A stretch of DNA of 64,000 nt from a virus (IMGVR_UViG_3300047202_000291); one strand, 5' to 3'. Positions 1 through 30,208 are shown, numbered from the stretch's first letter. Notes: generated from the sequence alone by a model not told the origin. Numbers and translations: made by a program.

Positions 1-3000
1 ATTAGTCCAGCCGGTATTTCTCAGGTCTTTGCTCTAGGTGATGAAGTAGCATATTCAGCACAAGTTCCAATAATATCAAATATTACTGAATATGGTGAAA
101 CCGCAAATAGCATAAATATAAGTTGGTTTGTTGATCAGCCAGTAGATAATAGAATGCAGATTGCTAAGAATCCTTGGATACTTGATGCTGCTTGGGCTAG
201 CAGAATTATTAATTATACTGAAACTTTTGAGCACATATATGCTGACACAGATACTTCGGTTCGCCTTTATGTTAGGCCCCCGTATTATGGTGGGATAGTT
301 AGTGTTGTTTGCTCAAATCCAGCATATAGCGCAAATTATTTAATTAATGATAGCGCGAGTCCTGTCGAAATTACTTTCGGGGATGTTAATGAGACAGATT
401 ACTATGATTGGACTATAACTTATATTTTGAATGATACTATACAATGGAATACGGGTAGACCGGCTTTCATGGTAGATAATTTAGATGCGGACACAACTTA
501 TTATTATAGGCTTTGGGCATACGGCCTCGGTGGGCTCAATACAACTCAGGACGGAAGCTTCACTTTAGGAACTCCTCCGGCGACACCTTTATCTGAGATT
601 CACAACTATACTGAGAATAGGCCCGATGAGCAGGTTATAGTCTGTGGTGAACTTACAGATATGAATAGCGAATCTTCAATAGATTGTTCAATTCAATATT
701 GGAACGAGGAATCAACTACCTTCGGGGAAACAACCGCAGATACCATGACCTCAACAGGAACATTCTGTAAGACAATTGATGTTAACTATGGTCACACTTA
801 TGGCTATAGAGCTAAATGTGCTGCCTCAACCACCGGTTATAGTGACGCATACTTTAACGAATTCATGGCAATTCAACCATTCTTTGCCGGCAATCCGATA
901 GAGGATGATCAGGATTATGAAGATAGGCAATATTGTCCTGCGGGTCCTGGAATAGAGCCTTGTTATGAACAGAGAGGATACCGCGAAGGTTCATTGCAGG
1001 AGGAAGATTGGATATGGATAGAGACAAATATTACTGATCAAGGTACTTTAACAGTTCATTGGTGGGATGATGGTTGGTCAACCTATGATATGACAAATGA
1101 CACCGATTCAGATATGAGATATTTGGAATTAACAGGTCTAGATTCTGATTGGCAGACATTTTATATAACGGGATCAGCAGATAATTTGGTTTTGAATTGG
1201 ACAAAGCCATCTATGATTCATTTGGTAAATCAGAATAGGACCGACGAATCAAAATATGTTGCATTCGGAGGAACTCCAACTGCCATTGATTATCAATTAC
1301 TCTATATGGATTCTCAAATATATGATATAAGCGCATATAGGTGGTGCATTGCAGCCGGTGGTTCTCTGTATGATTGCATGGGAGTTCAGTATTGGGGTGG
1401 TGGCTACGAAACTGGGATTCCTCCGTCTTTAAGCGGAACTTCTTATGATAGAGGTCAGCTTTTCAGAGGCGGTGTGATTAATGGTGAAATGTACGACACC
1501 GGGATTCTTACAGAAATTAGGGACACCGGCAAATCTCTTGGGGATGATGTTTATAATCAAAGGTACTGCTTCGCATTCACAGATTACTGGTGGGATTATT
1601 CAATTGTTCCAAGTAACAATATAACTAATTATTATTATCATTATTGGACTGAGAATGAGAAATATTCAGATTATCTTGGTCATAATCAAGATAGGTTATT
1701 TGATTATATATATTTGATGAGATTTGAATATGATGAGTTTAGCATGACGAGGGACTGGAAAGCCATAACTGGAACCACCCAATATGATGAAAATGTGGTT
1801 AAGACTGCGAGTGGTTCTAATTGGGGTACCTCAGCAGATCAAAGTTTGCTTGTTGGCTATGTGGGTGGATTCAATGTAGCAACCGATAAGGATCAGATTT
1901 ACAACTTTGGATTCTATACTGATGGAAGGTGGACAAATCAACAGTTCGGTAAGTATCAGCAGGCCTTCGTTATATTCAACCTGCCGGATAATGCGACTCT
2001 TCAGAGCATGGACAGCGATTCTGATAATTTGACAGATTATGATGAGTTGTATATATATTATACTAACCCGAAGAGCAATGACACTGATGAAGATGGTAGA
2101 GTGGATACATATGAGATTTTATATGATTATGACCCTAATTTGCCAGATTCTTGTGGCGTTGATGATAATGCTTGTGATTATTGTCAGAAATGTGTTTTAG
2201 GAACGTGTACTTTTGAGGCCGCCGATGAGGATGTGAAAGATGATTGTGACTTATATTTTGATGATTGTACAAATGCTTATACCTTGTTAGGGTCTAGTGG
2301 ATTCTGTGATGGTGCCGGAGATTGCGCTTACCATGATTTCGAAGCCAATGTTTCTATAGGAAAGATTTGTGTTGCTGGGCAGAATGTTAGTCCTTCGAAC
2401 AGCGTAAATTGCGGAATTTGGGCTGATTGTGTTGCCGGAACTACAAATACTAGCAGTACATATTTTGTTGGTTATGCCGGCGATGGTACAGCTACTTGTG
2501 ATGATACTGGTTGGGTTTATAGGGGTTGGTCTAATTTCACTATGCCTGCAGGACCAAGAGAATCCTTTGCATCAGCAGTCTTCGATGGAAAAATGTGGCT
2601 TTTTGGTGGAATTGATGCTAATCCGTCATGGAACGCTTATAATGATGTTTGGTCTTCTACTGATGGGATTAATTGGACTCTCGTAACTGATAATGCTAGT
2701 TGGTCTAAGAGAGATAATATGGTGGCAATTGTTTATGACAATAAGATGTGGATCATGGGCGGTTACACTATAACCGGTGTTGAAAATGATGTTTGGTATT
2801 CGACAGATGGTGCTAATTGGATTCTTGCGACCGAACATGCAAATTGGTCTGATAGATATGCTTTTGGGTTAGTTGTATTTAATGGTGCAATGTGGCTCAT
2901 AAGCGGAACTCCAACTGGCTATGCGTGGGATACTGATATTTGGAATTCTACCGATGGAATAAGTTGGAATCACGTAACTGATCAAGCTTGGCCTTATTAT

Positions 3001-4140
3001 GGAAGAGAGTATTTTGAAGTTGTTGTATTTAATAATACAATGTGGTTAATCGGAGGTCATCGGTTAGCTGGTAGTAATTGGTATTCTACGGATGGGGTTT
3101 CTTGGGCCTCTTATGATCCGCCAACAAATTATTGGGGTCAGGGAACTGTGGTGCTTGATGATAAAATATGGGTCACTGGAGGATATGTGTGGGGTGTGGG
3201 AACAAGATCAGATATGTGGTATTCTTCAAATGGATTAAATTGGATTGAATCTGAGTCTAATGCTCCTTGGGGCCCGAGAGTTTATCATGAATCATTAGCA
3301 TATGATGATAAAATATGGCTTTTTGGAGGATCGCCAGACGGTGGGGATTGGGCATATGATGACCTTTGGACTAATGAGCCACCGACATTAGATGTTACTT
3401 CAGGGTATGTCATAAATGTTACCGAGCATGCCGAAGTGTGTCAGGAGATCCTTATTACGGTAAATGTTACTGGGGTTACAACAGATCAGTCAAGCGTAAG
3501 TCCACTAGAAGGATCAACAGTTGATGTATTTTTTAATGTATTTTTAGAGAAGGTTCTTGGGGGGATAACTTCTTACAATATATCCGCAGTGTCTCCTTCA
3601 GGTGCAAGATACGCAGCAACCTGTAACTATACTTTATTTAACATGTCTTGTGTAGTGCCGATGCAGTATTATTATGAGCCGGGATTATGTGATGTGGATG
3701 TATTTGTTAGCGATAATAATGGAAGCGGTGCCCTTTATAAGGATGATTTATTTGATTATGGGTCACTCTTGGCGATGAGAAAAGATAGAGATTATATGGC
3801 TTTGACCGGATCATTTATTGGATTGAATAATGTGTCATTTGATATGCCTATTGATATGACTAATTCTGGGAATGAGAATATTACGGCCATAAAGCTGACG
3901 GCATATGACATTCCTGGGGCCGTTGTTCCTTCAAAGAAGATATTGGCATCTTATTTTAGGGCGGGAATAAGCCTGTCTGATTCAGTGCAGCTTGAGAATA
4001 GTGTCGAGAAGAACATACCCTTTGCATTAACTCCAGGTCCAAATGCAACTGCTGCCTTCGGGATGTGGGTCTCAGTTCCAGCAGATGCTTATCCGCAGGC
4101 TTATGTTTCGGTTATTCCCTGGCAAATAATATTTGAATAA
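1..4140 (+). CDS. Large surface/adhesin-like protein, 5'-partial (frame open from nt 1). Repeated ~47-aa beta-propeller (Kelch/BNR-like) units, Cys-rich module, DxDxDG Ca-binding-like motif, many N-x-S/T sequons
   Basis: No stop in frame from nt 1. About 9 repeats of W.STDG.NW...W..R...VF...MW..GG (nt ~2560-3400). Cys-rich CGVDDNACDYCQKC...; NPKSNDTDEDGRVD. Confidence 0.8.
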   Translation: MSPAGISQVFALGDEVAYSAQVPIISNITEYGETANSINISWFVDQPVDNRMQIAKNPWILDAAWASRIINYTETFEHIYADTDTSVRLYVRPPYYGGIVSVVCSNPAYSANYLINDSASPVEITFGDVNETDYYDWTITYILNDTIQWNTGRPAFMVDNLDADTTYYYRLWAYGLGGLNTTQDGSFTLGTPPATPLSEIHNYTENRPDEQVIVCGELTDMNSESSIDCSIQYWNEESTTFGETTADTMTSTGTFCKTIDVNYGHTYGYRAKCAASTTGYSDAYFNEFMAIQPFFAGNPIEDDQDYEDRQYCPAGPGIEPCYEQRGYREGSLQEEDWIWIETNITDQGTLTVHWWDDGWSTYDMTNDTDSDMRYLELTGLDSDWQTFYITGSADNLVLNWTKPSMIHLVNQNRTDESKYVAFGGTPTAIDYQLLYMDSQIYDISAYRWCIAAGGSLYDCMGVQYWGGGYETGIPPSLSGTSYDRGQLFRGGVINGEMYDTGILTEIRDTGKSLGDDVYNQRYCFAFTDYWWDYSIVPSNNITNYYYHYWTENEKYSDYLGHNQDRLFDYIYLMRFEYDEFSMTRDWKAITGTTQYDENVVKTASGSNWGTSADQSLLVGYVGGFNVATDKDQIYNFGFYTDGRWTNQQFGKYQQAFVIFNLPDNATLQSMDSDSDNLTDYDELYIYYTNPKSNDTDEDGRVDTYEILYDYDPNLPDSCGVDDNACDYCQKCVLGTCTFEAADEDVKDDCDLYFDDCTNAYTLLGSSGFCDGAGDCAYHDFEANVSIGKICVAGQNVSPSNSVNCGIWADCVAGTTNTSSTYFVGYAGDGTATCDDTGWVYRGWSNFTMPAGPRESFASAVFDGKMWLFGGIDANPSWNAYNDVWSSTDGINWTLVTDNASWSKRDNMVAIVYDNKMWIMGGYTITGVENDVWYSTDGANWILATEHANWSDRYAFGLVVFNGAMWLISGTPTGYAWDTDIWNSTDGISWNHVTDQAWPYYGREYFEVVVFNNTMWLIGGHRLAGSNWYSTDGVSWASYDPPTNYWGQGTVVLDDKIWVTGGYVWGVGTRSDMWYSSNGLNWIESESNAPWGPRVYHESLAYDDKIWLFGGSPDGGDWAYDDLWTNEPPTLDVTSGYVINVTEHAEVCQEILITVNVTGVTTDQSSVSPLEGSTVDVFFNVFLEKVLGGITSYNISAVSPSGARYAATCNYTLFNMSCVVPMQYYYEPGLCDVDVFVSDNNGSGALYKDDLFDYGSLLAMRKDRDYMALTGSFIGLNNVSFDMPIDMTNSGNENITAIKLTAYDIPGAVVPSKKILASYFRAGISLSDSVQLENSVEKNIPFALTPGPNATAAFGMWVSVPADAYPQAYVSVIPWQIIFE

Positions 4141-4158
4141 AATTGAATGGGGTGTAAA

Positions 4159-4326
4159 ATGGCAAAATACATTAGGCATACTGTTATGTCTAAGGCGAAG
4201 TTTCAGCCAAAAAGCTTTAAGACCATAGATCCTGGTAGGCCCGGGCATACTAAGCTCGTCATTGGCAGGTTGAAATCAGGTATCCATAAAGGCAAAACTC
4301 GAGTGCATCAGATACTTTGGAAATAA
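4159..4326 (+). CDS. Small basic hypothetical protein (55 aa)
   Basis: ATG with upstream GGGGTG; below the ORF-track length cutoff. Confidence 0.3.
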   Translation: MAKYIRHTVMSKAKFQPKSFKTIDPGRPGHTKLVIGRLKSGIHKGKTRVHQILWK

Positions 4327-4339: not shown

Positions 4340-5254
4340 ATGAGGGGTTGGCATTATGAATCTCATAGGCATAGTCTTGCAGCCAAAGGCATAAAGACTT
4401 CTCAGCCAAAGCTTGCCAAGGTTCTCAGATCAGAAAATATCATCTTTGAGCCAAAATACGATGGCACGCGCATGATTCTTGAGAAGAAGGGTTCTGAGCT
4501 TACATTCATCAATAGGCGCGGTGTCGTAAAGAATGATACTTATCCTGAATTATATAATATTAATAAGAGCATCAAGGGCGATGTAATTCTCGATGGTGAA
4601 GTTGTCGTTCTAGATAAGGAGCATCCCTTTGGCAATTTTGAAAAGCTCGCAATGAGAGATAGGCTAAAAGATAAAGAGGAAATAGAGAAAAGATCCAAAA
4701 CCCTTCCATTGACTTATGTTGTTTTTGATATTCTGGAAAAAGACAGGCAAAAGGTGGCAGATTTGCCATTGTCCGAGCGGAAGAAGATTCTTGATAATGT
4801 GATTGCACAAGGAAAGAACATCAGAGAAATAGAGTTCTCAAATAAATCAAGCGAGATGTTGTCTAAAGTTAAGCAGGCAAAAGGAGAAGGAATTGTGCAA
4901 AAAGACATCAATTCTAAATATGCACCAGGTTCCACGAGGTCCTGGGAAAAATACAAGCTTCTTAAGACAAATGATGTGGCAATAATTGGTATCACTTTAG
5001 GGACGGGAAGAAGAAAAGGTTATTTTGGTGCATTAAAGATTGCAGTTAATACTCCAAAAGGTTTAAAACCTGTTGGAAAAGTCGGCACCGGATTCTCAGA
5101 CGCTGATTTAAAGGAGATAAAAAGTAGATTGGATCAAGGTGAAAAACTCGTTGCTCGAATTCAATATAGAAAAATAGGTAGTGCTGATCATTATATTGAA
5201 CCTCGTTTTCAGGCAATTCGAACAGATATTTCTCAAAGTGATACGCACGAATGA
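4340..5254 (+). CDS. ATP-dependent DNA ligase (small, viral-type) carrying the shared N-terminal GW.YESYRHSLAAKGIKT module
   Basis: Motif I EPKYDGTRM (KxDGxR), motif III VILDGEVVV, motifs V/VI GIVQKD...WEKYKLLK. SD AGGGTGAG upstream. Confidence 0.85.
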   Translation: MRGWHYESHRHSLAAKGIKTSQPKLAKVLRSENIIFEPKYDGTRMILEKKGSELTFINRRGVVKNDTYPELYNINKSIKGDVILDGEVVVLDKEHPFGNFEKLAMRDRLKDKEEIEKRSKTLPLTYVVFDILEKDRQKVADLPLSERKKILDNVIAQGKNIREIEFSNKSSEMLSKVKQAKGEGIVQKDINSKYAPGSTRSWEKYKLLKTNDVAIIGITLGTGRRKGYFGALKIAVNTPKGLKPVGKVGTGFSDADLKEIKSRLDQGEKLVARIQYRKIGSADHYIEPRFQAIRTDISQSDTHE

Positions 5255-5268
5255 AGGAGGAGATAAAA

Positions 5269-5382
5269 ATGGGAAAATTGGAAAAAGCATTGAATAAATT
5301 TGCAAAATTCACTTTTGTGAAGGCACCAAAGGCAGGTGTTAAGGCAGGGAATGTAGTCAGGAAAGGCTGGAAAAAGAAGTGA
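5269..5382 (+). CDS. Small Lys-rich hypothetical protein (37 aa)
   Basis: Strong SD GAAGGAGG 8 nt upstream of the ATG. Confidence 0.3.
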   Translation: MGKLEKALNKFAKFTFVKAPKAGVKAGNVVRKGWKKK

Positions 5383-5522
5383 TTCAAAAGTAGATTTATG
5401 GCTAAAAAAAAGGAGAAGCCGATACTTGAGGAATGGATTGAAATGATTGAGGATGATATAAAAAATACAGTTAAGGAGATTAAATATTTTATTGAGCATC
5501 CAAAAAACGAGAGGAGATTAAA

Positions 5523-6359
5523 ATGAAGGGTTGGTATTACGAATCTTATCGTCATAGTCTTGCAGCCAAAGGTATAAGGACAAATTGGGTGTTAATCAAT
5601 GAGAATCCGAGCTATAAGCGCATAAGAATCAATCGCGGATATAAAGATGTCGTCCAGGTAGATGCAAAGACTCTTAAAGAGCGTTTTGAGAAGGATAATA
5701 ATACTCCTCTTGCTTGGAAGCAATTAAGATTCGATCTTCTGAAAAACTGTGAGGAGTTTGATCAATATCCTGAGGTTGATATTCTTTCTTCTGGCAAAAT
5801 AGATTTTAATGATGGTCGTCATAGGGTTGCTGTGGCCGCAGCTCGTGGCGAGACAATCGAAATAGCAGTTAAAAATAAAGATAAATTTCTTGAGGCTTTC
5901 AGTAAGCATTCTTTTGCTGCAAAGCAGGATCCTTATGAATTTCAGGATAGCAATCAGGAGAAGATAGTTCATGCTGATTGGTGGGGTGAGCAACAATATG
6001 ATGCGAATCATAGGCCTCTTCCTTTGCTCTGGAAAGATAATGAGCTCAGATTTGTTCTTGAGGGCTCTGGCGATATTTTCAGGGAGTTCTCAATACATAA
6101 AGCGGATAACTGGTGGTTTGCTCAGAATTATATTGATGAGAAGGCAGCCCGCATTAAGAAATATCTGACTGATCCTTCTTTGGCGAATCATTCCGTCGGA
6201 GAGATAAATAAAGCAAAGCTTGCAGAGATTAGAAGGCTTTGGACAATTCAGCCTTACGAAACAGAGTTGCAGAAGAAAGCTATTGATCTGAACCTTGCGA
6301 TAATTGATAAGGACAATGAGAAGGCACTTTCAATCTTAAAGGAGGTTTCGAAAGTATGA
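5523..6359 (+). CDS. ParB-like nuclease domain protein with the shared N-terminal module
   Basis: ParB/Srx motif FNDGRHRVAVAAARGE. N-terminus MKGWYYESYRHSLAAKGIRT. Confidence 0.7.
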   Translation: MKGWYYESYRHSLAAKGIRTNWVLINENPSYKRIRINRGYKDVVQVDAKTLKERFEKDNNTPLAWKQLRFDLLKNCEEFDQYPEVDILSSGKIDFNDGRHRVAVAAARGETIEIAVKNKDKFLEAFSKHSFAAKQDPYEFQDSNQEKIVHADWWGEQQYDANHRPLPLLWKDNELRFVLEGSGDIFREFSIHKADNWWFAQNYIDEKAARIKKYLTDPSLANHSVGEINKAKLAEIRRLWTIQPYETELQKKAIDLNLAIIDKDNEKALSILKEVSKV

Positions 6360-7105
6360 ATCGTTACAAACCCCTTGGTTGGCGTTATGAATCATACAGG
6401 CATTCCTTAGCAGCCAAAGGCATCAAAACAAGGTATAAGGTGCCTCCGGCATGGAGAAATGTTAAGTATTATAAGGATAAGCCGTATGTTGTAACTGGTG
6501 TTGATAAGAAAGGTAGGGTTCAATATATTTATCCTGAATCTTTTTCTTCTGCAAGCAGTGAAAAGAAGTTTAATAGGATTGAGCGCTTTGAGAAGCAAGC
6601 ACCGGCTATAATCGATTCTGTAATGAAGGATGTTAAAAAAGGAGATAATCCCGAGGCCGAAGTTGTTTATACGATGTACAAAACTGGATTTAGGCCAGGT
6701 TCGGAGAATGATACAATGGCGGAGAAGAAGGCGTTTGGTGCATCAACTTTGCTTAAGGATCACGTTTCTGTGCGAAAAGATGATGTTAAGTTTAAATTCA
6801 TTGCTAAGAAAGGCGTTCCTGTTGAAAAAGACGTTAAGGATAAGCTTCTTGCAGATATAATTAAGAGGCGCATGCAAAGTAGACGGCTCTTTGATACCTC
6901 TGAAGGTCGTTTAAGGGCTTATTTTGATAAAAAGACCCAAGGTAGGTTCCAATTAAAGGACCTGAGGACTTTGAAGGCCTATGAGGTCGCTAAGGAGGCT
7001 GGTGGCGATAAGAAGGAGATAGCTGAACGCGTTTCAGAGGAGCTCAGCAATACGCCCGCAGTCGCGATAAGTTCTTATGTTCATCCGAGGCTGATTAATG
7101 AATAG
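6356..7105 (+). CDS. Type IB topoisomerase-like catalytic-domain protein (compact) with the shared N-terminal module
   Basis: YKTGFRPGSENDTMAEKKAFGASTLLKDHVSVRKDDVKFKFIAKKGV resembles the poxvirus-type TopoIB core (GccsLr.eHv...v.F.F.GK). C-terminal LRTLKAY is a possible catalytic Tyr. N-terminus GWRYESYRHSLAAKGIKT. Confidence 0.5.
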   Translation: MNRYKPLGWRYESYRHSLAAKGIKTRYKVPPAWRNVKYYKDKPYVVTGVDKKGRVQYIYPESFSSASSEKKFNRIERFEKQAPAIIDSVMKDVKKGDNPEAEVVYTMYKTGFRPGSENDTMAEKKAFGASTLLKDHVSVRKDDVKFKFIAKKGVPVEKDVKDKLLADIIKRRMQSRRLFDTSEGRLRAYFDKKTQGRFQLKDLRTLKAYEVAKEAGGDKKEIAERVSEELSNTPAVAISSYVHPRLINE

Positions 7106-7760
7106 ATTAAAGCCAATCGGTTGGAAATACGAAGGATATAGGCATAGTTTAGCAGCTCGAGGTATCAAAACTTCTTTTAAATTAAAATATGGAAAAGACA
7201 TTCCCGCGCAGCTTCATACTGGTTCAAAGGAATTTAAGGATATTAGCGAAGTGAAACAGCACCTCCCTTTTAAGCCAAGGGGCGGTTTTTGGACTTCGAG
7301 CTATAGGCATGATGCAGAGCCTGGATCTAAAAGTGATTGGCTTGATTGGGCATCCTCAGAAATGCCTGGGAAAGCCAGTAGTGAACACATGATTCTTAGG
7401 CCAATTCCAAATGCAAAGATATTTGAGATCGATGATGAAGAAGATATGAGATATTTGTTTGATAAATATGGAACACTTGTGAGCGGTATGCCCGATATTG
7501 ACTGGCAGAAACTCTCGCAGGATTATGATGGATTGCGTGTGACTGAGAATGCTGCACGCAAGTTTCATTTGAATTACGTTTCTATGGAGGATTTGATTAA
7601 AAAGAAGGGATTGAAAAGTCCTTTTGGAAAAGATCATTTTTTATCAGGAGTTACCTTAAATGCTTGGGACTCTGAAAGTACAATTTGGTTTAGGGATGTT
7701 TTCAAGAAGAAAACTCCCGTTGATATGAAAATAAATGCTGAAATGGATACCGGATATTGA
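7098..7760 (+). CDS. Hypothetical protein with the shared N-terminal module
   Basis: N-terminus MNRLKPIGWKYEGYRHSLAARGIKT; no other recognisable domain. Confidence 0.65.
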   Translation: MNRLKPIGWKYEGYRHSLAARGIKTSFKLKYGKDIPAQLHTGSKEFKDISEVKQHLPFKPRGGFWTSSYRHDAEPGSKSDWLDWASSEMPGKASSEHMILRPIPNAKIFEIDDEEDMRYLFDKYGTLVSGMPDIDWQKLSQDYDGLRVTENAARKFHLNYVSMEDLIKKKGLKSPFGKDHFLSGVTLNAWDSESTIWFRDVFKKKTPVDMKINAEMDTGY

Positions 7761-8809: not shown

Positions 8810-9346
8810 TTGGTTAAGACATTCGGGGTGGTTACCATCGTAACCATCTCGGAAATAGCGACTGATTTTGGTTTCAAGGGCTCGAAATTTCATAAATACG
8901 CTGAAATTACTGGTTCTAGGCAGGTTACAATTGATGAGTCGACAGCTTCTGAAAACAACGTCGATACTTCTGTGGATTGCTATGTTGCAGGTACTTATAT
9001 TGGTCGAGATGGTGCAACCATAGAGGTTCGTCAAAGATATACGATCTATGTTTCTTACAGTCGTTCTACACAGAGGATTGCGATGACTAAAGTGCGTGCA
9101 GCAATTATCAATGACTTTGAGCATAATTTTCCAAATTTTCATATCATAGATGTTTTCCTTCCAGAGGAGAAGTTCATTATTCCTTTGGGTAAAGAAGGTC
9201 TGCGTGAATCAGAGGAGTTTTATTATGGGTCTGAGCTGTTTAAAGTGCTTTCACGTCGTGATGTTGGTCGATTCAGGGTCGGAACCGAAAAGGATATATT
9301 TAAGTCCCGTATTAGCCAGATAAAAAGAAGATTTAATTTGAGGTGA
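8810..9346 (+). CDS. Hypothetical protein (non-ATG start, TTG/GTG)
   Basis: 178-aa ORF. Start uncertain; overlaps a shorter minus-strand ORF. Confidence 0.4.
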   Translation: MVKTFGVVTIVTISEIATDFGFKGSKFHKYAEITGSRQVTIDESTASENNVDTSVDCYVAGTYIGRDGATIEVRQRYTIYVSYSRSTQRIAMTKVRAAIINDFEHNFPNFHIIDVFLPEEKFIIPLGKEGLRESEEFYYGSELFKVLSRRDVGRFRVGTEKDIFKSRISQIKRRFNLR

Positions 9347-9748: not shown

Positions 9749-10042
9749 ATGATGAAATATTATGATAGATGGACATTCATGCGCATTCTTCTTCATCTAT
9801 GGTCCACTGTTAACGGCGTCACTTTATCAGATTTGCGTAGGAAGATTGGTCTTAGGGTGACGATTGAGCACATTGATTGGCTTGAGAAGCACAAGTATGT
9901 GCGCAGAGTTCAGGATATTGATGATTTTCGAAAGCTCAATATTTATTTAACAGCGAAAGCAAAGCCAGTGTGCAAGGCATTAATGGATTTGAAATATTCC
10001 TTGCCAGAGGATTTGGGAAATGAATTTTTTAGGTCGCATTAA
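9749..10042 (+). CDS. Winged-helix DNA-binding protein (MarR/ArsR-like)
   Basis: GVTLSDLRRKIGL...HIDWLEKHKYVRR helix-turn-helix/wing pattern. SD TAGGAGG. Confidence 0.55.
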   Translation: MMKYYDRWTFMRILLHLWSTVNGVTLSDLRRKIGLRVTIEHIDWLEKHKYVRRVQDIDDFRKLNIYLTAKAKPVCKALMDLKYSLPEDLGNEFFRSH

Positions 10043-10547
10043 GCTTCTTTTTGAATATTTTAAAAAGAATGATATGACTCTACGCGAGTTTGCAATAGGT
10101 ATGAACTCAGAGGTCAGCATCAAGAAGGACCTTCATATTCTTTTCTTCGATTATGATGAAGTCTCCCAAGAAGATGTCGAGGAATCTGTATTGGAATGCC
10201 AGGTTTTTTGGAATCTTTCAGACTGTTTTCTCTATAAGACTGGGAATGGGTTTCATGCATATTTTTATTATGATATAATGCCCTACACAAGAGTGCGCAT
10301 GATTATCGACTTTGCTAAATATGTTGATCCAATGTTTAAGTTCATTGGCAGATTTTATGATTATAAAACCATACGCCAGGCAGGAAAATACAAAGTGCAG
10401 GACATTTCTTTCTTGAAAATGATCCCGGGCAAGAGAACGCCCACTCTGGGAGAGGCTGAATTAGGTGATCTGAAGCGCAGGGAACGTGAATATTTATCCC
10501 AGATGCACGGCATTTTGAAGCCAGAAGTATTAAAAGACAAGAAATAA
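10020..10547 (+). CDS. Archaeo-eukaryotic primase (AEP)/primase-polymerase-like small protein
   Basis: AEP motif I ILFFDYDE (hhhDxD) and motif II TGNGFHAYF (sGxGxHxY). Lies directly upstream of the iteron-rich ORF-free region. Confidence 0.55.
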   Translation: MNFLGRIKLLFEYFKKNDMTLREFAIGMNSEVSIKKDLHILFFDYDEVSQEDVEESVLECQVFWNLSDCFLYKTGNGFHAYFYYDIMPYTRVRMIIDFAKYVDPMFKFIGRFYDYKTIRQAGKYKVQDISFLKMIPGKRTPTLGEAELGDLKRREREYLSQMHGILKPEVLKDKK

Positions 10548-15983: not shown

Positions 15984-16571
15984 ATGAAGAGAATAGAACT
16001 GGAAGGTTTTGGTTCTGTTGTTCTTTGTCCGATAAAGTTCAGAATGCCAGAAGCCCATTGGATTGATAACAAAGGCAAGGAAGCCAAATATACAATTCAA
16101 GGTAAGGGTAAAGGCGTTTATCTGGACTCTGAAGGCAAAGAAGTCAAGAGAGCGGAACTGAAGAGAAAATATTTGATTAACGGGAAGGAAATCCTTACCG
16201 AGAGGCTGAAGCAAACAGATGTTGTTCGTGCCAAGAAGATAAGTCTTATGGATGGGGCGAATGCACCGCTTGCTTTGATTGGCTCAATTGAAGCTGAGAA
16301 ATTTGGGCTTGTGACAGATAACACTAAGATAAAGGAAGCCTTTGATGGTGGCTCTGCAATTCTTGCTAAAGATGTTGTTCTTACAACTGGCGGGATGCCC
16401 TTTAATCTTATAATGTCTAAATTAACTACTCCTTCAGGTAAGGAGAAGTTAGTCGCATATGCAGTCCGTGGCGATTTCTTCGGGACATTAGAGAAATTCC
16501 AAGATGAGCCAATAGACATTCCATTTGAAGAGCAGAATGTTTCTGAACTGAGCGAAGCTCTTGGTGTTTAA
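15984..16571 (+). CDS. Hypothetical protein (immediately upstream of ligase 2)
   Basis: ATG at 15984; the track start at 15981 is TTG. Confidence 0.6.
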   Translation: MKRIELEGFGSVVLCPIKFRMPEAHWIDNKGKEAKYTIQGKGKGVYLDSEGKEVKRAELKRKYLINGKEILTERLKQTDVVRAKKISLMDGANAPLALIGSIEAEKFGLVTDNTKIKEAFDGGSAILAKDVVLTTGGMPFNLIMSKLTTPSGKEKLVAYAVRGDFFGTLEKFQDEPIDIPFEEQNVSELSEALGV

Positions 16572-16598
16572 ATTATTTAGAGCATTTGAGGTGATAAT

Positions 16599-17450
16599 AT
16601 GCCAGAACTAATGCCGATGCTCTTGCAGGAAGTGGAATTCTCAGAGGATGTCTTTGAGAAATATAAAGACTATGTTTGGCAAGAGAAGGAAAATGGCGTG
16701 CGGGTTATGGTTCATATAAAAGACGGGAAGATTTCTGCAGTAAGAAATAGGCGAAATAATCCTGTCTTGCATTTGTATCCAGAACTAACTGCACTTGATT
16801 TTGGGAAAATTAGTGCTATCTTGGACGGCGAACTTGTTGTCTTTAAAAATAACAAGAGTGTTTTCTATGGTGGTATTAATCAAAGGGATAAGCTTTATTC
16901 AAAGGATTCTGTGGAGAAATTTCCAGTTACATTTGTGGCTTTTGATATGATTTTTCTTAATAAGGAAATTCTATTAGGTAAGCCACATAATGAGAGGTAT
17001 GAACTTTTGAATACTGGATTTCTTTCATATACTGGAAAGCACTTTGTAATCTCTGATAATATTGCTGACCCAAAGAAATACTGGGCTGAGCACGTTATTC
17101 CGGAAGGAAGAGAAGGCTTGGTGCTTAAGGATCCCAAAAGCAAATATGAGCCAAGCCAAAGGTCTTGGTCTTGGCTGAAGCTTAAGAATTATAAGGTTGC
17201 TGAAGTGATTGTCGATAGCATTGATGTCAATGTTAAGGGCAATAAGATTACTGGAAAGGCAACTATTAATTCAGAAGTGTGTATTGTTGAGTGCCAATAC
17301 GGCGGCGTGTATAATATTCAGTTAGGCGATAAGCTTCCTGTCGAATATCTTGATATTGTCGGCGGGAAACTTATTCAGCCACATAAGCCAAGAAAATGGA
17401 AGCCAGAGGTGATTCAAAATGCCAGTGAAAATGAAAGTTCCAAAGATTGA
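16599..17450 (+). CDS. ATP-dependent DNA/RNA ligase (second copy; KxNG motif-I variant)
   Basis: Motif I KENGVR, motif III ILDGELVVF, motifs V/VI LVLKDPKSKY...WLKLK. Confidence 0.7.
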   Translation: MPELMPMLLQEVEFSEDVFEKYKDYVWQEKENGVRVMVHIKDGKISAVRNRRNNPVLHLYPELTALDFGKISAILDGELVVFKNNKSVFYGGINQRDKLYSKDSVEKFPVTFVAFDMIFLNKEILLGKPHNERYELLNTGFLSYTGKHFVISDNIADPKKYWAEHVIPEGREGLVLKDPKSKYEPSQRSWSWLKLKNYKVAEVIVDSIDVNVKGNKITGKATINSEVCIVECQYGGVYNIQLGDKLPVEYLDIVGGKLIQPHKPRKWKPEVIQNASENESSKD

Positions 17451-20166: not shown

Positions 20167-21042
20167 ATGTGTCATATAAATGTAATTTTTAAGAAAGATA
20201 AGGTGCCAGATAAGAAATTAAGTAGGTATATGAATGTAGTGAGTTATTATAGTTATTTGGCTAATGATGACGGCGAAGGGTATGTTGGTATCGACGCTGA
20301 GAAAGGAAAAGAGATTTCTTTTGGGAAGGGATTTAACAAGTTTTACTTTGTGAATCCATATTGGTTTCTTGCAACGCACCAAAGGATTGCTACTTCTGGA
20401 AAAGGGGTCGGTAACACCCATCCGCACGAAACAAAGGACTTTATTTTGATGCACAATGGGATCATAAGTTCTCTTGGTTCAGATGAGAAATCAGATTCAA
20501 AAGTCTTTGCCGATATGTTGCAGGAGGCTTTTGATAAGCAGGAAGAGGATAAGAAGGACTTGACTTTGGCAATAAGGGAAGTCACCAAGCAGGTAAATGG
20601 AACCTATTCTATTCTTATAGTTGAGAAGGCGACTATGCGTGTTCTTTACTTTAAGGAGCGCATTACAGATATGTATAAGATTGAGAACAAGGATTGGTTA
20701 GTCATGAGTACAGATGAGAAGAATGTCAAGTTTGCAAAATTCTGGTTAGGTATAAAAGGGAAAGTAAAATCAGTTGGGGAGCTTTATATTTATGATGTCT
20801 TGGATAATTTCAAAAAGATAAGGAAATTCGAGGAGCAGCCATATGTTTACGCAGAGTCGAAATCTTCCTCAATTTCAGGATATGGGCGAACTTATTATTA
20901 TGATGAGGATTATCATTATACTGGCAAAATCGTTAAGTCAGCATATGATGAGGAATGGATTAAGGACGATAGGGTAAGTGGCATAGAGAAATCTATTGAG
21001 GATGAGCGAAGGGAAAGATTTGAAAAGTATGACTTCTTTTAA
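20167..21042 (+). CDS. Class-II (Ntn) glutamine amidotransferase domain protein
   Basis: N-terminal MC (Cys nucleophile). RIATSGKGVGNTHPH...LMHNGIIS matches GlmS/PurF R.ATHG....N.HPH...HNGII. Confidence 0.7.
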   Translation: MCHINVIFKKDKVPDKKLSRYMNVVSYYSYLANDDGEGYVGIDAEKGKEISFGKGFNKFYFVNPYWFLATHQRIATSGKGVGNTHPHETKDFILMHNGIISSLGSDEKSDSKVFADMLQEAFDKQEEDKKDLTLAIREVTKQVNGTYSILIVEKATMRVLYFKERITDMYKIENKDWLVMSTDEKNVKFAKFWLGIKGKVKSVGELYIYDVLDNFKKIRKFEEQPYVYAESKSSSISGYGRTYYYDEDYHYTGKIVKSAYDEEWIKDDRVSGIEKSIEDERRERFEKYDFF

Positions 21043-21062
21043 GTAAGAGGTCGGGGTAGAAA

Positions 21063-21395
21063 ATGGAGCCGATAATCTTTGATGAGGGTGATGGTTATCG
21101 TACCAAGGCATACAGGCTTGAAGGTTCTTATGCAAAATTCTTTGGTAACGCTTTTGAATTTGTAGTTATCGAATGGTCACATCCAAATTATGGCTATTGG
21201 GCTGATGCTATGTTCTGGTGGCGTTCAATGCACACTGGTAAATGGCAGCCAGTGCCGATTGTTTCTTGGTGTGCTGGATACGATACACCAGAAGAATTTC
21301 TGGAGGATTTTCCTGTCTTTAAGAAACTCTTTAAGGGCATTGAGGAACGAGATTCGAGTGCAATAAAAAGGGCACTCGATAAGATAATTAAGTAA
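21063..21395 (+). CDS. Hypothetical protein within the amidoligase cluster
   Basis: ATG ORF on the + strand. Confidence 0.55.
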   Translation: MEPIIFDEGDGYRTKAYRLEGSYAKFFGNAFEFVVIEWSHPNYGYWADAMFWWRSMHTGKWQPVPIVSWCAGYDTPEEFLEDFPVFKKLFKGIEERDSSAIKRALDKIIK

Positions 21396-21406
21396 GAGGT
21401 TTTGTA

Positions 21407-22129
21407 ATGGATGTATCTGAAATGGCAATCGGGTATGAGCTTGAGGCTGGGTTAAAGGAGAATAGCAGCGTTAGGAATGTTGCGAGGCAACTTGGATTTC
21501 GTATCGGGGACGATGGTAGCGTATGTTGTGATGATATGGATACTTGGGAAGCTGAGCTTAATTCTCCCATTTATCAGGGGCAGAAAGGCAAAAAGCTGTT
21601 ATTTTTTGAGCTAAAGAAGCCAGATGTGGATAATAAGATTTTTTCAGACTTTGAGCAGTTGTCGCATTATGTGAAGGAGATAAATGATTCTATGGGTCTT
21701 CATATTCATGTTTCTTTCAAGAATAAAAAATATTATCAGTATTTATTCTCTTTCGCTTTCGTGAAATTCTTTCAGAAGGAATATATGAGGCATTTTAAGA
21801 AGCCTGTTGAACGAAATCGAGCAAATAATGAATATTGTGAGTTCTATGATGATGGGGATATTTATGAGTTCAAGGATATAAAGGATGAGGCTCTTGGTTC
21901 TCACGATAAATGTGATGCAAGAAATCACTCGGTTAATTTTAATTCTTATCCCGTTCATAAGACAATTGAGTTCAGGATTTTTCCAGCGACTAAGCGGTCG
22001 AAAGACTTTAAGAGATATGTTAATTTTGTGACTGGTTGTGTCACCAGTTTTATTTCTGAGGTCGAGAAGGAAAAAGTCTTTGAGCAGTTGATGGAACAAA
22101 GGATGAAGAAGATTAAAGTGAATATATAA
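21407..22129 (+). CDS. Amidoligase-like enzyme, paralog of the 19108 gene
   Basis: GYELEAG, GDDGSV, AELNSP, MGLHIHVS. Confidence 0.45.
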   Translation: MDVSEMAIGYELEAGLKENSSVRNVARQLGFRIGDDGSVCCDDMDTWEAELNSPIYQGQKGKKLLFFELKKPDVDNKIFSDFEQLSHYVKEINDSMGLHIHVSFKNKKYYQYLFSFAFVKFFQKEYMRHFKKPVERNRANNEYCEFYDDGDIYEFKDIKDEALGSHDKCDARNHSVNFNSYPVHKTIEFRIFPATKRSKDFKRYVNFVTGCVTSFISEVEKEKVFEQLMEQRMKKIKVNI

Positions 22130-26182: not shown

Positions 26183-26782
26183 ATGAAACCGAAACTCAGT
26201 ATAAAGTATTATCAGAACGCAGACAAGAATCATCAGGATTCTTTTTGGTATGATGGAGATATTGCATTGCTTAAATATAAGAATCGAGAAGTGCTTGTAG
26301 TCGCTGCAGGCGACATAAGGATTCACAATAAAAGAGGTGAGTTGGTCTATGATTGTAAGCCCCGCAATTCAGGATTTTCATTCAAGCTTGAGCAAGATAA
26401 AGATTTGTATAAGATAGGTAATAATTATGATGATGATTTCTATTGGGAAAATAACAACTGGTTCGAGCTCTTTTATAAGAACAAAGGAGATTCTAATTGG
26501 AATGATATTTTAGGTGATGTTTATTTTGACTATGGTGTTGTAATAAAAGCGGCGAAAGATGCAATTAAGGATGATAAATGGTGGAATGAAACCTGGAATA
26601 AAGCTACCTGTCTTGAGTGTAAGAAGGAGTTTATTCAGGAAAGGGACATTCAGCTTTGTGATGTTTGCATAAAGAAGTTCAATCTTGACAAGCTCTGGAA
26701 AGACCACGACAATAATAAAATTGATGCTCTTGATTTTAATGAGTCTAAAAAGATACGAGAAAAATATAGGGTGAAGAAATAA
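26183..26782 (+). CDS. Hypothetical protein with a C-terminal CxxC...CxxC motif
   Basis: ATG after GAGGT. Confidence 0.55.
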   Translation: MKPKLSIKYYQNADKNHQDSFWYDGDIALLKYKNREVLVVAAGDIRIHNKRGELVYDCKPRNSGFSFKLEQDKDLYKIGNNYDDDFYWENNNWFELFYKNKGDSNWNDILGDVYFDYGVVIKAAKDAIKDDKWWNETWNKATCLECKKEFIQERDIQLCDVCIKKFNLDKLWKDHDNNKIDALDFNESKKIREKYRVKK

Positions 26783-27933
26783 TGGAAGTAACACACGAAC
26801 AGTTGGCTATGCTTATTGAAGAGCACCGAAGGGCAGGGCTTCCTTTGTTTGTTGATGGTGCAACAGGCATCGGTAAATCTGAAGCTGGTATTAAGAGCAG
26901 TAAGATGTATGCTGATAGAATAAGTAGGCAATGGGTTGCTTGGGTTGATCTATCTAATTTAGATAGGCATAAGTTTCTTGATGACAAGGAGATTGTGAAG
27001 GTTCATTTATTCGTTGACATAAGGACGGCTCTTTTGGAACCGACTGACCTTCTTGGTTTGCCGTTTAAGGATGAGCGTGGTTATGTTGCTTGGTTGCCGA
27101 CTCTTCTTTTCAAGATTCTGAGTTTGCCTTCAGTTTCAGCTACTATATTCTTTGACGAATTCAATTTAGGCAGTTTGATGGTCATGAAATCCAGTTATCA
27201 GCTTATTCTTGATAAGGCCATAGGGGAAGTCAAGCTTGGTAAGGATGTTACAATTCTTGCAGCAGGAAACAGGATTGAGGATCGTGCTCACGTTACAGAG
27301 TCTCCAGCTCCATTAAACAATAGGTTTAGCCATTGCACTTTGCTTTGTCCAACTCCAGATGAGTGGATTATGTATAATCTTAAATCAGAATATCCTGAGC
27401 CAAGGCTCGTTTCTTTCATTAAGTTCAAGCCTAAATATATCTTTGACTTTAAGCCTAACCAAAAGGAGAAAGCATTTCCTACTCCGAGGGCGATTCAGCA
27501 GTTGGCTATGTTGCTTAAGGGAAAAGATGAGATGAATGAGCTCGATAATATGACCATGCTCGCCCAGGCGAAATGTGGTGATGCTTTCGGTGCAGAGTTT
27601 CAATCCTTCTTGCGTCTTACGAGGAAGGTTAATGTTGATGAGATTCTAGAGCATCCTGAAAAGGTGCATGAATTTGAAAAACAGCTTGACTTGAAATATT
27701 CATTAATCTCTGGGGTTGCCGTAAGGGTGAAGCAGGACTTCAATAAGATGGAACAGGCCCTCAAAGTTATAGCCGAGCTTGAAGATGAGTATGGTGTCTT
27801 TTTATTGAGAATGATTATTGATATTTGCGGTATGAAGGTGTTGTCCGTCCTTGAGCATAGTAAGACTTGGGAAACCAGGCTCTATGATAAGTTTAAGGAC
27901 ATATTAAGCACGAGATTTGCGCAGGTGAGTTAA
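26782..27933 (+). CDS. MoxR-family AAA+ ATPase
   Basis: Walker A DGATGIGKSE, Walker B IFFDEFN, sensor AAGNR, PLNNRF arginine-finger motif. Confidence 0.8.
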   Translation: MEVTHEQLAMLIEEHRRAGLPLFVDGATGIGKSEAGIKSSKMYADRISRQWVAWVDLSNLDRHKFLDDKEIVKVHLFVDIRTALLEPTDLLGLPFKDERGYVAWLPTLLFKILSLPSVSATIFFDEFNLGSLMVMKSSYQLILDKAIGEVKLGKDVTILAAGNRIEDRAHVTESPAPLNNRFSHCTLLCPTPDEWIMYNLKSEYPEPRLVSFIKFKPKYIFDFKPNQKEKAFPTPRAIQQLAMLLKGKDEMNELDNMTMLAQAKCGDAFGAEFQSFLRLTRKVNVDEILEHPEKVHEFEKQLDLKYSLISGVAVRVKQDFNKMEQALKVIAELEDEYGVFLLRMIIDICGMKVLSVLEHSKTWETRLYDKFKDILSTRFAQVS

Positions 27934-28174
27934 ATGGATAAAAATAAGCAGTATGCTTTGAAGATAAAACGGCGTTATGAAAACATATGTGAAAAGCTCG
28001 AGCAGTTGAATGCAGAAGCATTTGAGCTTGAGCAGGAGATGATGATGTGGTGAGATTAAAATGAAATTTTATAACTTTAAAGTTGAGGGAATAAGCGAAG
28101 AAATGGTGAAATTATTGATGAAACCATGTGATGAAGAAGGATTAGAATTTATAGTGGAGGAGGTGAAATAGAAA

Positions 28175-28906
28175 ATGTCGCACTTTGTAATGGGTGTAGT
28201 TGTGCCTGGAGATGAGCCATTGACTTTTGTTGATGATGCTCTTGCTCCTTTTGACGAGGCTCTTGTTGTAAAGCCTTATAAAAGGAAGTGTTGGTGTATT
28301 GGTAAGGAGGCAGAAGCGGCAATCGCAAAAGAAGGCACCGAAATATATGGATCTTGGGATGACCTGAGGACTAAGTTCCATGCACAGGAACAGATAAGGC
28401 AGGTAAAAAAAGAACAGGAAAAACTTTATAATAAGCCAAAAGAGGCCAAAAGATATTCTGAAATCGAGGCTTCAATTCAGAAGCAATGGGAAGCTTTCAT
28501 TAAGCCAAAATTAGATTTCGAAAAAAAGTGTTTGAGAGACCATCCTGGAAAAAATTCTCCGATGAAAAATTGTGAATCTTGCAAAGGGACAGGTAAGGAG
28601 ACCGTGACCTATAATCCGAAGTCAAAATGGGATTGGTATGAAGTCGGCGGTCGTTGGGATGGCTTCTTAAGTAAGACCAATGTGACGACTGTGAAGGAAC
28701 ACCTTAAGCAGTTGAAGAAAGCCTTTGACGCTAAAGTTTGTTTCGGCTATTTGGTTGATGGTGAATGGATTGAAAAAGGAGATATGGGTTACTGGGGTAT
28801 GGTTGCTAATGAAAAAAGTGAGCAGGTAATTCGTAAGAAATTCCTTTCATTGCTTGAGGGGTTAAATCCAGATGATAGGATAGTGGCAGTTGATTGTCAC
28901 ATATAG
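28175..28906 (+). CDS. Hypothetical protein
   Basis: SD GGAGGAGGTG upstream. Confidence 0.6.
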   Translation: MSHFVMGVVVPGDEPLTFVDDALAPFDEALVVKPYKRKCWCIGKEAEAAIAKEGTEIYGSWDDLRTKFHAQEQIRQVKKEQEKLYNKPKEAKRYSEIEASIQKQWEAFIKPKLDFEKKCLRDHPGKNSPMKNCESCKGTGKETVTYNPKSKWDWYEVGGRWDGFLSKTNVTTVKEHLKQLKKAFDAKVCFGYLVDGEWIEKGDMGYWGMVANEKSEQVIRKKFLSLLEGLNPDDRIVAVDCHI

Positions 28907-28916
28907 AGGTGAAGCT

Positions 28917-29123
28917 ATGCCTAAATTGTTGTTAGTTTTGGAAGCTCCGATAAAAATCTTTAAAGAACGAGATGTCTATCAGGTTTATAGGGTTTGGGCT
29001 AATGGCGTGCTTGCTCGATACGGATACGGTAAGACCAGAAAAGAAGCCATAGAAGTTGCTAAGAAGTTATTCATAGAATCGAAAAGAGGCAAAGCCGTCT
29101 CTTGTAAATATGTGGGTGATTGA
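28917..29123 (+). CDS. Hypothetical protein
   Basis: ATG at 28917. Confidence 0.5.
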   Translation: MPKLLLVLEAPIKIFKERDVYQVYRVWANGVLARYGYGKTRKEAIEVAKKLFIESKRGKAVSCKYVGD

Positions 29124-29276
29124 ATGATAAAGCCAAAGATAAACTATGCGAAGCTGATACTTGAGATACCGATATATTGGGGTATTGATGACGATGGCAA
29201 TATATTTGATGAAGAGGAGATGACAGAGGACTTTCAGCAGTTGCTGAAAAAGTTAAATCCAAAGAAGGTGAAATAG
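29124..29276 (+). CDS. Small acidic protein (50 aa)
   Basis: ATG ORF on the + strand. Confidence 0.35.
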   Translation: MIKPKINYAKLILEIPIYWGIDDDGNIFDEEEMTEDFQQLLKKLNPKKVK

Positions 29277-29419
29277 TGCCGACTTATGTGTATGTTGAGA
29301 AGAATGGAAATGCTTCATTAATACTTAGTGCAGATGCTGAAGAAGAAGCCGAAGCTTATCTTGGGGCTGTTGTTAAGCTTCCTGTTGAGTGGCGGCTCGA
29401 ATCAGTTGAGGTGGAATAG

Positions 29420-29650
29420 ATGTGCAATCGATACGAGACAAATCTTGAATCTTGGGAATCGAGTTTGAGCGATAGGCTCGATAAGCTTCTGGATGAAGAG
29501 ACTTTGGCTTTCATCAAGGCTTGTAAAGCTGACGGTGGAGAATCTGAGCCAGATGCTTTTGTTAATCCAGATATGGAGGCGGCTCAAAAAGATACTCTTG
29601 TAGCCATACAGCGATGGTTCGACGATAAAAAGGATGTCTTGCAAGTGTGA
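29420..29650 (+). CDS. Hypothetical protein
   Basis: ATG ORF on the + strand. Confidence 0.5.
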   Translation: MCNRYETNLESWESSLSDRLDKLLDEETLAFIKACKADGGESEPDAFVNPDMEAAQKDTLVAIQRWFDDKKDVLQV

Positions 29651-29659
29651 GGTGGAAAT

Positions 29660-29932
29660 ATGAACTTTATGAATATAAATGGCTTGGCAATTAAGTTCGA
29701 TGGAGATAGGCTTACTATTGAGGGCTTAAAGAAAGGCTCAGGTAAATCTATTAAGATTGATAAGGATGGGATAATCACTGGTGATGTCACTGGCGATGTT
29801 CAGGTCATAGGTAATAATGTTATTTTGAATATCGAAGGAGATGTGACTGGGAATATTGTCGGAGCGCGTGAAGTGAAGGTTCACGGTGACGTGACTGGGA
29901 ATATCTCTGCTGGAAAAGTTAGCAAATGGTGA
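29660..29932 (+). CDS. Bactofilin-like beta-helix repeat protein
   Basis: Repeated GDVTGDV / GDVTGNI / GDVTGNIS units. Confidence 0.55.
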   Translation: MNFMNINGLAIKFDGDRLTIEGLKKGSGKSIKIDKDGIITGDVTGDVQVIGNNVILNIEGDVTGNIVGAREVKVHGDVTGNISAGKVSKW

Positions 29933-29941
29933 GGCGAAATA

Positions 29942-30208
29942 ATGTGTAAAAGAAGTTCTTGGAAAGAAGTTCGCGGCGTATTAGTAAAGAAAGTAAAGGT
30001 TGCAGGATATGGAATGGTGTTGGTAAAACTTCCTTCCAGATATATGAGCCTCCACATACCTATGGGCGATGGAGAAGACAAAAAGATGTTCGATGAATTA
30101 GTATATTATAATCAAAGACTATATAATGGAAAAGATGAACAAACAATAAAAGGAAATGTTACAAAATTCATAAAAGAATACAAAGCAAGAAAGTGTGAGG
30201 TGGTATGA
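29942..30208 (+). CDS. Hypothetical protein
   Basis: ATG ORF on the + strand. Confidence 0.5.
   Translation: MCKRSSWKEVRGVLVKKVKVAGYGMVLVKLPSRYMSLHIPMGDGEDKKMFDELVYYNQRLYNGKDEQTIKGNVTKFIKEYKARKCEVV

Follow-up and report, generated by a model that had tools for sequence, protein, structure and literature searches.

We analysed 64,000 nucleotides of the viral contig IMGVR_UViG_3300047202_000291 (hereafter the window), in which four consecutive open reading frames (ORFs) on the plus strand begin with the same short peptide, referred to below as the tag. The original prediction, made from the sequence alone, had described four such ORFs sharing one N-terminal module, and both their coordinates and their opening peptides were confirmed. 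ORF1 (4340..5254) and ORF2 (5523..6359) carry a short form of the tag that lacks an NRYKP extension, MRGWHYESHRHSLAAKGIKT at 4340..4399 and MKGWYYESYRHSLAAKGIRT at 5523..5582; ORF3 (6356..7105) and ORF4 (7098..7760) carry a long form, MNRYKPLGWRYESYRHSLAAKGIKT at 6356..6430 and MNRLKPIGWKYEGYRHSLAARGIKT at 7098..7172. The opening common to the four reads (MNRYKPx)GWxYE(S/G)(Y/H)RHSLAA(K/R)GI(K/R)T, and 13 of its residues (G, W, Y, E, R, H, S, L, A, A, G, I and T) are invariant in these four copies. Exactly these four full copies were found in the window by a six-frame regular-expression scan, and a degenerate back-translated DNA pattern matched only the same four sites in the window and none in 100 dinucleotide-preserving shuffles. 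A scan for promoters and terminators was uninformative.

Past the tag the four proteins are unrelated, as had been predicted: no meaningful downstream alignment was obtained among them, and all of their Pfam and PHROG matches lie outside the tag. ORF1 encodes a minimal ATP-dependent DNA ligase of 304 amino acids (aa), identified by Pfam (DNA_ligase_A_M, PF01068, 4e-32; OB domain, PF04679, 3.7e-9) and by PHROG (phrog_114). It consists of the nucleotidyltransferase and OB domains without the DNA-binding domain, and possesses the KxDG adenylation motif expected of a ligase, as KYDGTR at residues 39-44. ORF3 (249 aa) is a topoisomerase IB of the bacterial/pox type (Pfam PF01028, 1.5e-12), and its alignment to the Deinococcus radiodurans enzyme (TopIB, 2f4q, 7.7e-15) spans residues 25-246, starting right where the tag ends. 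The Arg/Lys/Arg/Asn/Tyr active-site motifs are kept in it (fRPGS, aKKG, kDLRT and NTPAV..SY). These results confirmed the predicted identities of both enzymes.

The other two ORFs proved more resistant to annotation. ORF2 encodes a 278-aa protein of two domains, both within 5523..6359 on the plus strand: a putative ParB/Srx-like domain at residues ~30-125, DGRHRVAVAAARG, with a DGRHR motif, and a helical domain, DPYEFQDSNQEKIVH..., to which no family could be assigned. The two domains are found separately behind the same tag in other proteins. The predicted ParB-like nature of ORF2 stood in part and is weakly supported: its DGRHR motif conforms to DGxHR and a homologue (P0008) has a precomputed PF02195 match, but ORF2 itself had no Pfam match at E<=0.1, and ParB, PadC and sulfiredoxin appeared in Foldseek only among non-significant matches. 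ORF4 (220 aa) has the conserved motifs KPRGGFWTS, DYDG and WDSESTxWFR and a homologue without the tag (P0004); its domain, for which no function had been predicted, is still of unknown function after Pfam, AlphaFold and Foldseek analysis. Foldseek searches of the PDB with the AlphaFold models of ORF2 (predicted local distance difference test score, pLDDT, 67) and ORF4 (pLDDT 52.6) gave nothing significant.

A fuller consensus of the tag is M-N-R-Y-K-P-x-G-W-(R/F)-(N/Y)-E-S-(Y/H)-R-H-S-L-A-A-(K/R)-G-I-(K/R)-T, often followed by (S/R/K)-(F/Y), and its general form is (MNRYKPx)GW-x-x-(E/D)-x-x-RH-x-LAA-(K/R)-G-(I/V)-x-T, ~20-25 residues in all. About ten of its positions are conserved in at least 95% of 159 aligned N-termini. 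The profile search with the N-terminal peptide, proposed alongside the original prediction, was run with 26 positions against 1.84 billion representative proteins (clusters at 50% identity) and matched 1547 cluster representatives at E<=1e-3, 19 of them at E<=1e-10. In the best 150 of these 1547 matches, which are proteins of 40-619 aa, the tag lies with few exceptions within residues 1-30. Ten clusters that were looked up were all known from metagenomes only (JGI/IMG, ENA or Logan), and all were unnamed or 'hypothetical' except one LigD-like protein.

The possibility that the tag is some known generic domain was not borne out. None of the curated families or PDB chains searched covers it: the tag profile had no PDB match at E<=10, and Pfam and NCBIfam scans of 148 tagged proteins revealed no family common to them. 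No description of the tag peptide was found in the literature on the motif strings, archaeal viruses or Borgs, and neither blastn of the region nor tblastn of the tag consensus matched any of 50,697 phage and archaeal-virus records. A word-indexed homologue search with the tag alignment returned a single 40-aa fragment, the index being unsuited to short motifs. In IMG/VR a relaxed DNA pattern found the motif in a single contig, and two over-strict patterns gave no match. Among 185,579 species-representative genomes the DNA pattern was present in 16 loci, and the multi-copy loci among these came from seven metagenome-assembled genomes, five of them archaeal (two Methanosarcinales, one from Woesearchaeota, an unclassified euryarchaeote and an unclassified archaeon). 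Single matches in Rhodobacteraceae (L005, L011 and L016) were rejected as internal segments of one conserved, unrelated cellular protein; they are left out of most tag statistics below but are still within the totals of 510 copies and 142 loci. The elements with the tag range from AT-rich to GC-rich. On these comparisons we regard the tag as belonging to no described family and as being widespread on hundreds of unrelated proteins.

Tag copies were counted with a local hidden Markov model (HMM) across 142 fetched loci (710 kb). This yielded 510 copies, up to 15 per locus, and in every one of the multi-copy loci (117/117) all copies lie on a single strand. Consecutive tagged genes are no more than 20 nt apart in 76% of cases, the commonest arrangement being a 4-nt overlap, and at the most extreme tagged ORFs occupy 80-96% of the locus. 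Approximately 85% of the copies lie within 30 codons of a preceding stop. The tag is not confined to N-termini, since ~15-20 copies were found at the extreme C-terminus, with a short basic tail after them, and a few are internal or doubled.

The content of the arrays differs among close relatives. Four tagged genes in the window correspond to five in the syntenic loci L002/L003, where an extra gene encoding 148 aa lies between the ligase and ORF2, and to nine in syntenic L145 (PolX, 351 aa, 243 aa, ligase, 143 aa, ParB-like, 290 aa, TopIB and the ORF4 family). Another syntenic relative (L001) has seven, and the more distant elements L020, L021 and L129 have 14, 14 and 15, respectively. At the position of the extra gene, which lies at 9311-9999 in L002 and is also present in L003, the window (5251-5526) contains only two tiny ORFs of 43 and 42 aa. 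The tagged 148-aa gene is a cargo cassette that one or other of these close relatives has acquired or lost. Two further observations concern tag-like peptides. In L145 a 155-aa ORF (16430-16897) has at its end a tandem pair of degenerate repeats that resemble the tag, GWRGDSEAHKLAAN... GWRGDSEGHKKAALG, with a weak tag-HMM score. A second shared N-terminal peptide, MSKKGSHQI(R/H)HVRHS(R/K)KGK(V/I)(F/Y)(N/G)AGK, stands at the start of three or more ORFs that otherwise differ (L142 140-541 and 1027-1344; L104 ~1679-1759), in elements that also bear the GW..RHSLAA tag.

The tag-coding DNA of the four window copies is ~75% identical, with synonymous changes that include exchanges between the AGT and TCC serine codons; recent DNA duplication therefore does not explain the tags. 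Together with the unrelated payloads this bears out the earlier judgement that recent tandem duplication is unlikely, and we rejected it as the origin of the tags. In 455 distinct tag-coding 54-mers the first, second and third codon positions contain 1.10, 1.37 and 0.34 bits of information, respectively, and alternative codon families are used for Ser (AGY and TCN), Arg (AGR and CGN) and Leu (CTN and TTR). Since third positions are nearly free and alternative codon families are in use, selection acts on the peptide and not on DNA or RNA, and any explanation of the tag as an RNA or DNA element was rejected.

The same codon-position statistics contradict, and largely refute, the view that the tag is a cassette handle at the DNA level, either a 5′ recombination site for payload swapping, like that of the orphan toxin modules behind CdiA or Rhs genes, or a relic of tandem duplication. 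Such a handle would suit the location of arrays directly downstream of a giant secreted protein, the differing cargo of close relatives, and the presence of long and short tags on orthologous payloads, which suggests exchange within the tag. It is, however, at odds with the absence of a conserved DNA site, with the low DNA identity of the window copies and with the start codon that every tagged gene has of its own. Moreover, the giant protein itself is untagged, no immunity-like genes are interleaved with the closely abutting tagged genes, C-terminal copies exist, and duplication cannot account for unrelated payloads. We consider a DNA-level handle very improbable.

Removal of the tag from 446 N-terminally tagged proteins left payloads that fell into 267 BLAST clusters, 198 of them singletons. 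Those with recognisable roles on DNA or other nucleic acids comprise TopIB, ligases (one LigD-like), PolX, ParB-like proteins, a nucleotidyltransferase, an HNH repeat, Zn-ribbons and a KOW-like domain. Other annotated payloads are a HAD/NIF phosphatase, GNAT, cupin, lipocalin and DUF5661 proteins, DUF6321/DUF3140 proteins that have an anchor at the C-terminus, long coiled coils, and membrane proteins of the tail-anchored type. A strong membrane-like segment was present in only 9/446 payloads and absent from 98%, indicating that the cargo is cytosolic. The original prediction of a kit for DNA repair or DNA-end processing is therefore too narrow: with at least 267 unrelated payload clusters, mostly of unknown function, the tagged cohort is large, quickly turning over, mostly soluble and mostly uncharacterised, and the DNA enzymes are its annotatable minority.

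The tags of one element evolve in concert. Tag identity is 72% within a locus versus 63% between loci, and the most frequent residue at position 6 has a share of 0.28 over all tags, versus 0.70 for the majority residue within a locus. Lineages have variants of their own, such as PARHALAAKG in all 11 copies but one of L006, SHRHYLAAKG in L100 and SARHSLARKG in L150. Such uniformity within an element would be expected if all its tags fitted one shared partner. AlphaFold modelled the tag at a pLDDT of ~32, with a short helix at residues 5-15 and no packing on the payload, and the tag has a net charge of ~ +5, followed in some lineages by GRKKK-type tails. The tag is best described as a short linear motif, basic and prone to form a helix, that is attached by a flexible linker. 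It does not resemble a Sec or Tat signal peptide, being polar and basic and having no hydrophobic stretch.

Portability of the tag is evident from the complete domains that follow it, from tagless homologues (P0004 for ORF4, and an untagged ligase-like gene in the window), from the independent recombination of the two ORF2 domains behind it and from the C-terminal copies. The untagged gene (16599-17450) is 29% identical to the tagged ATP-dependent ligase and has KENG in place of the expected adenylation motif KxDG. Taken together, placement at either terminus, the linker, the unpacked helix, selection on the peptide, concerted variation, the arrays and the hypervariable cohort argue for a docking motif with one partner. 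The predicted targeting or docking tag agrees with all that was measured and stands as far as portability is concerned, since the tag is not part of the enzyme families behind it and is not a duplication artefact; docking itself is what we infer.

We therefore favour, with a probability of roughly 0.55, an autonomous, portable terminal docking peptide that would be bound by one conserved receptor, its cargo possibly being co-delivered with the genome. According to this model, the tag, which the elements put on an extensive and fast-changing repertoire of soluble proteins of their own, would serve as an address label. A single conserved receptor, either encoded by the element or universal in its host, would bind the peptide and gather all tagged proteins in one place. 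Where the docked cargo goes is speculative. Likeness to sets of injected or packaged effectors, which combine a constant label with variable cargo of fast turnover, led us to rank co-delivery as the likeliest outcome; the place of gathering would then be a transmissible particle or a genome-delivery complex, from which the ligase, PolX, topoisomerase IB, ParB-like and nucleotidyltransferase enzymes, together with many unknown effectors, would reach the next cell with the DNA.

Immediately upstream of the array lies an untagged gene for a giant Kelch-repeat surface protein, whose C-terminal 1328 aa are encoded at 154..4140 on the plus strand. The ORF corresponds to residues 1129-2455 of a 2456-aa protein of L002 (95% identity) and lacks the signal peptide of the latter, so that the gene appears either to start before the window or to be split or truncated here. 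Full-length relatives have Sec-type signal peptides and share the last ~200 aa of the window protein. The window ORF contains 32 N-x-S/T sequons versus 13.4 +/- 3.2 expected, a 2.4-fold excess over shuffles, and neither the six-frame scan nor the DNA pattern found a tag in it. A giant protein immediately 5′ of the tag array is found in the window, L002/L003, L020 and L145, with at most a small basic ORF between. In the window this is a very basic ORF of 59 aa (4147..4326, plus strand), which is unchanged in L002/L003 (100% identity, against 83-95% for the genes on either side) and 59% identical in L020. In L020 it lies inside the tag array, in L004 it makes up the payload behind a tag, and we regard the 59-aa ORF as a candidate partner of the tag system.

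On the other side of the array, also on the plus strand, are genes for two untagged proteins, one of 178 aa (8810..9346) that follows the array in this lineage and has homologues in 6 loci, and one of 175 aa (10020..10547) that is conserved downstream of arrays in 5 loci and has a faint AEP-primase-like Pfam match. Untagged neighbours elsewhere include secreted beta-helix, PKD, NosD and LamG proteins, as well as AEP primases, an integrase, Ku-like proteins, Cas4 and an XPB-type helicase that has archaeal proteins as its best PDB matches. Another recurrent neighbour of the arrays is a family of P-loop ATPases, which in several loci has an intein in its Walker A motif. It is a candidate receptor or packaging ATPase and may be a terminase or a helicase; searches of Pfam and the PDB, also with a profile of the family, found no match. 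Inteins were observed in the ATPase family at L150 3325-4836, in L025 and in L045, and probably in the XPB-like helicase at L150 14719-17322; the intein-bearing ATPase gene and the XPB-like helicase gene both flank tag arrays.

The Ku-like, Cas4, AEP primase and XPB helicase neighbours would also fit the main rival to docking and co-delivery, a tether on which the original prediction had touched in suggesting that the peptide might bind a clamp or scaffold. The basic tag would bind DNA or RNA directly, or would dock on a hub that is itself bound to DNA (for example a sliding clamp, Ku or chromatin protein), and would concentrate the element's enzymes on its genome inside the infected cell, with no loading into particles. 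The charge of the tag and the GRKKK-type tails of some lineages are consistent with this, as is its occurrence at either terminus, where clamp-binding motifs are typically found. Most annotatable payloads (ligase, LigD-like, PolX, TopIB, ParB-like, nucleotidyltransferase, HNH, Zn-ribbons and KOW-like) indeed act on nucleic acids, but most payload clusters are unannotated, so that the apparent enrichment is biased by annotatability, and many payloads have no obvious role of this kind (lipocalin, cupin, GNAT, tail-anchored proteins and coiled coils). Read from its sequence, the motif is unlike a PIP box, APIM or AT-hook, and residue frequencies by column over 159 tags do not show the PIP-box pattern Qxx[LIM]xx[FY][FY]. 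Positions as nearly invariant as G, W, RH, LAA and G would, furthermore, be unusual for non-specific electrostatic binding to DNA. We judge a tether unlikely, albeit the strongest of the competing explanations.

The window has a GC content of 38%, and essentially all of its credible genes are on the plus strand. GC skew is strongly positive (0.16-0.38) until ~58 kb and falls to ~0.1 in a region of 12 plus-strand tRNA genes (59416-62979; Leu, Cys, Met, Tyr, Asp, Glu, Pro, Gly, Arg x2, Phe and His), where GC rises to 42-44% and HNH endonuclease ORFs lie between the tRNA genes (e.g., 62209-62736). Accessory genes of the window encode LemA, SPFH, MoxR with DUF2201/VWA, MazG, amidoligase, GtrA, HIRAN and bactofilin proteins and an Hjc-type resolvase. 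A weak GATase-like gene adjoins an Amidoligase_2 gene (20167-22129), and a MoxR-type AAA+ ATPase gene lies near that of a DUF2201 metallopeptidase/VWA protein (26782-32218). Both sets are possible protein-modification or maturation systems.

The MoxR-type ATPase with its metallopeptidase/VWA partner, and the amidoligase, raise a further alternative, akin to the common regulatory degron mentioned in the original prediction. The tag might be a handle for a chaperone, unfoldase or protease, that is, a common degron or quality-control tag by which the whole cohort is switched on or off, or, in a related version, a propeptide cut off by a dedicated protease. A terminal tag that is modelled as exposed and disordered, on a linker, and arrays that resemble co-regulated operons would be compatible with such a role. 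The MoxR/VWA and amidoligase genes are, however, not among the families that recur beside the arrays, degrons are normally far more degenerate, and no conserved cleavage motif follows the tag, positions +18 onward being loosely S/R/K and then F/Y. A handle of this kind seems improbable to us, more so than a tether.

The tag is carried by uncultivated elements that are probably archaeal and virus-like; we infer both 'archaeal' and 'virus'. Several observations weigh against docking followed by co-delivery. Neither the 64-kb window, out of a contig of 117,127 bp, nor 77 untagged neighbour families yielded a recognisable capsid, portal, terminase or prohead protease; that these elements make virions is therefore conjectural, and the predicted virion packaging found no direct support. 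The only PHROG match labelled 'virion structural protein', at 44315-44965 (phrog_1383), was rejected as a LemA-family protein, phrog_1383 representing LemA-family proteins of Enterococcus, Listeria and Acinetobacter phages. Sec signals on the giant neighbours fit a plasmid-like or budding element as well as they fit a tailed virus. No receptor was identified, and orthologous payloads bear the long or the short form of the tag in different genomes. Targeting peptides are usually more degenerate than this motif, and its strict conservation could reflect a mini-fold with an activity of its own. Finally, gene conversion, not a shared receptor, could yield the concerted evolution of the tags.

By analogy, the tag system fits the known concept of peptides that target cargo or effectors. 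The internal proteins of phage T4 and DarB of phage P1 have N-terminal capsid-targeting sequences, and their cargo, which includes anti-restriction and DNA-acting enzymes, is co-injected. As in T4 and P1, a short N-terminal peptide here marks several unrelated proteins of one element. It has no sequence similarity to the phage signals, however, and is also found at C-termini and on as many as 15 genes of one element, a number well above that in those phages. Whereas the T4 signal is cut at (L/I)xE by the prohead protease, neither a cleavage motif after the tag nor protease and capsid genes were found in the window or the 77 neighbour families. The cargo-loading peptides of encapsulins, which are necessary and sufficient for loading, are likewise short, C- or N-terminal and joined by a flexible linker, and serve diverse cargo enzymes whose genes adjoin the shell gene. 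The tag differs from them in having no GSL-type consensus and no HK97-fold shell gene, by Pfam or PHROG, beside the arrays, and its cargo repertoire is far larger, with DNA enzymes and unknown proteins in place of ferritin-like proteins or peroxidases.

A constant N-terminal trafficking module combined with a variable C-terminal payload is also the design of MIX effectors of the type VI secretion system, LXG effectors of the type VII secretion system and phage MuF-toxin fusions. The tagged genes share with polymorphic effectors and with the orphan arrays of contact-dependent inhibition (CDI) and Rhs systems the constant module, the hypervariable payloads, the tandem arrays by a giant secreted protein and the fast turnover. 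The module is only ~25 aa here and is no folded domain, and the payloads include enzymes of a housekeeping kind (ligase, TopIB and PolX), not toxins. Unlike in CDI and Rhs systems, the giant protein is untagged and its C-terminal domain is conserved, there are no immunity genes, and 76% of the tagged genes abut. Finally, dockerin-cohesin cellulosomes and PIP and Ku-binding motifs provide examples of one small module that brings many enzymes to a common scaffold, and PIP and Ku motifs likewise occur at either terminus; the tag is unrelated to them in sequence, and no scaffold with repeated receptor modules was identified.

A bolder proposal, which we consider possible but doubtful, is that a large, unrecognised lineage of archaeal viruses or virus-like extrachromosomal elements, nearly missing from IMG/VR and from reference virus collections, loads a rapidly evolving arsenal of as many as 15 proteins or more by means of a peptide address code and a receptor of a new kind. 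Loading could be into a particle, a vesicle or an intracellular compartment, and the arsenal would include a ligase/PolX/TopoIB set for genome repair. Such a sorting code would, on this tentative view, have no counterpart among known prokaryotic viruses and would offer a ready-made cargo tag.

The tag phenomenon is much larger than the four genes of the window. Even if the proposed destination were wrong, a 25-residue peptide so conserved across more than 1500 clusters needs a mechanistic explanation. The tag could mark these elements in metagenomes (in IMG/VR, one contig) and might serve as a portable label for loading foreign proteins. If it is a sorting or docking signal, it would give an experimental handle, as bait for the receptor, on a lineage without a cultivated member. 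The ligase, PolX and topoisomerase IB set would then share its handling with effectors that evolve fast; enzymes are also packaged by large eukaryotic DNA viruses, and the parallel with the tagged set may or may not hold. Above all, hundreds of dark-matter protein families would become one functional cohort, the cargo of the element.

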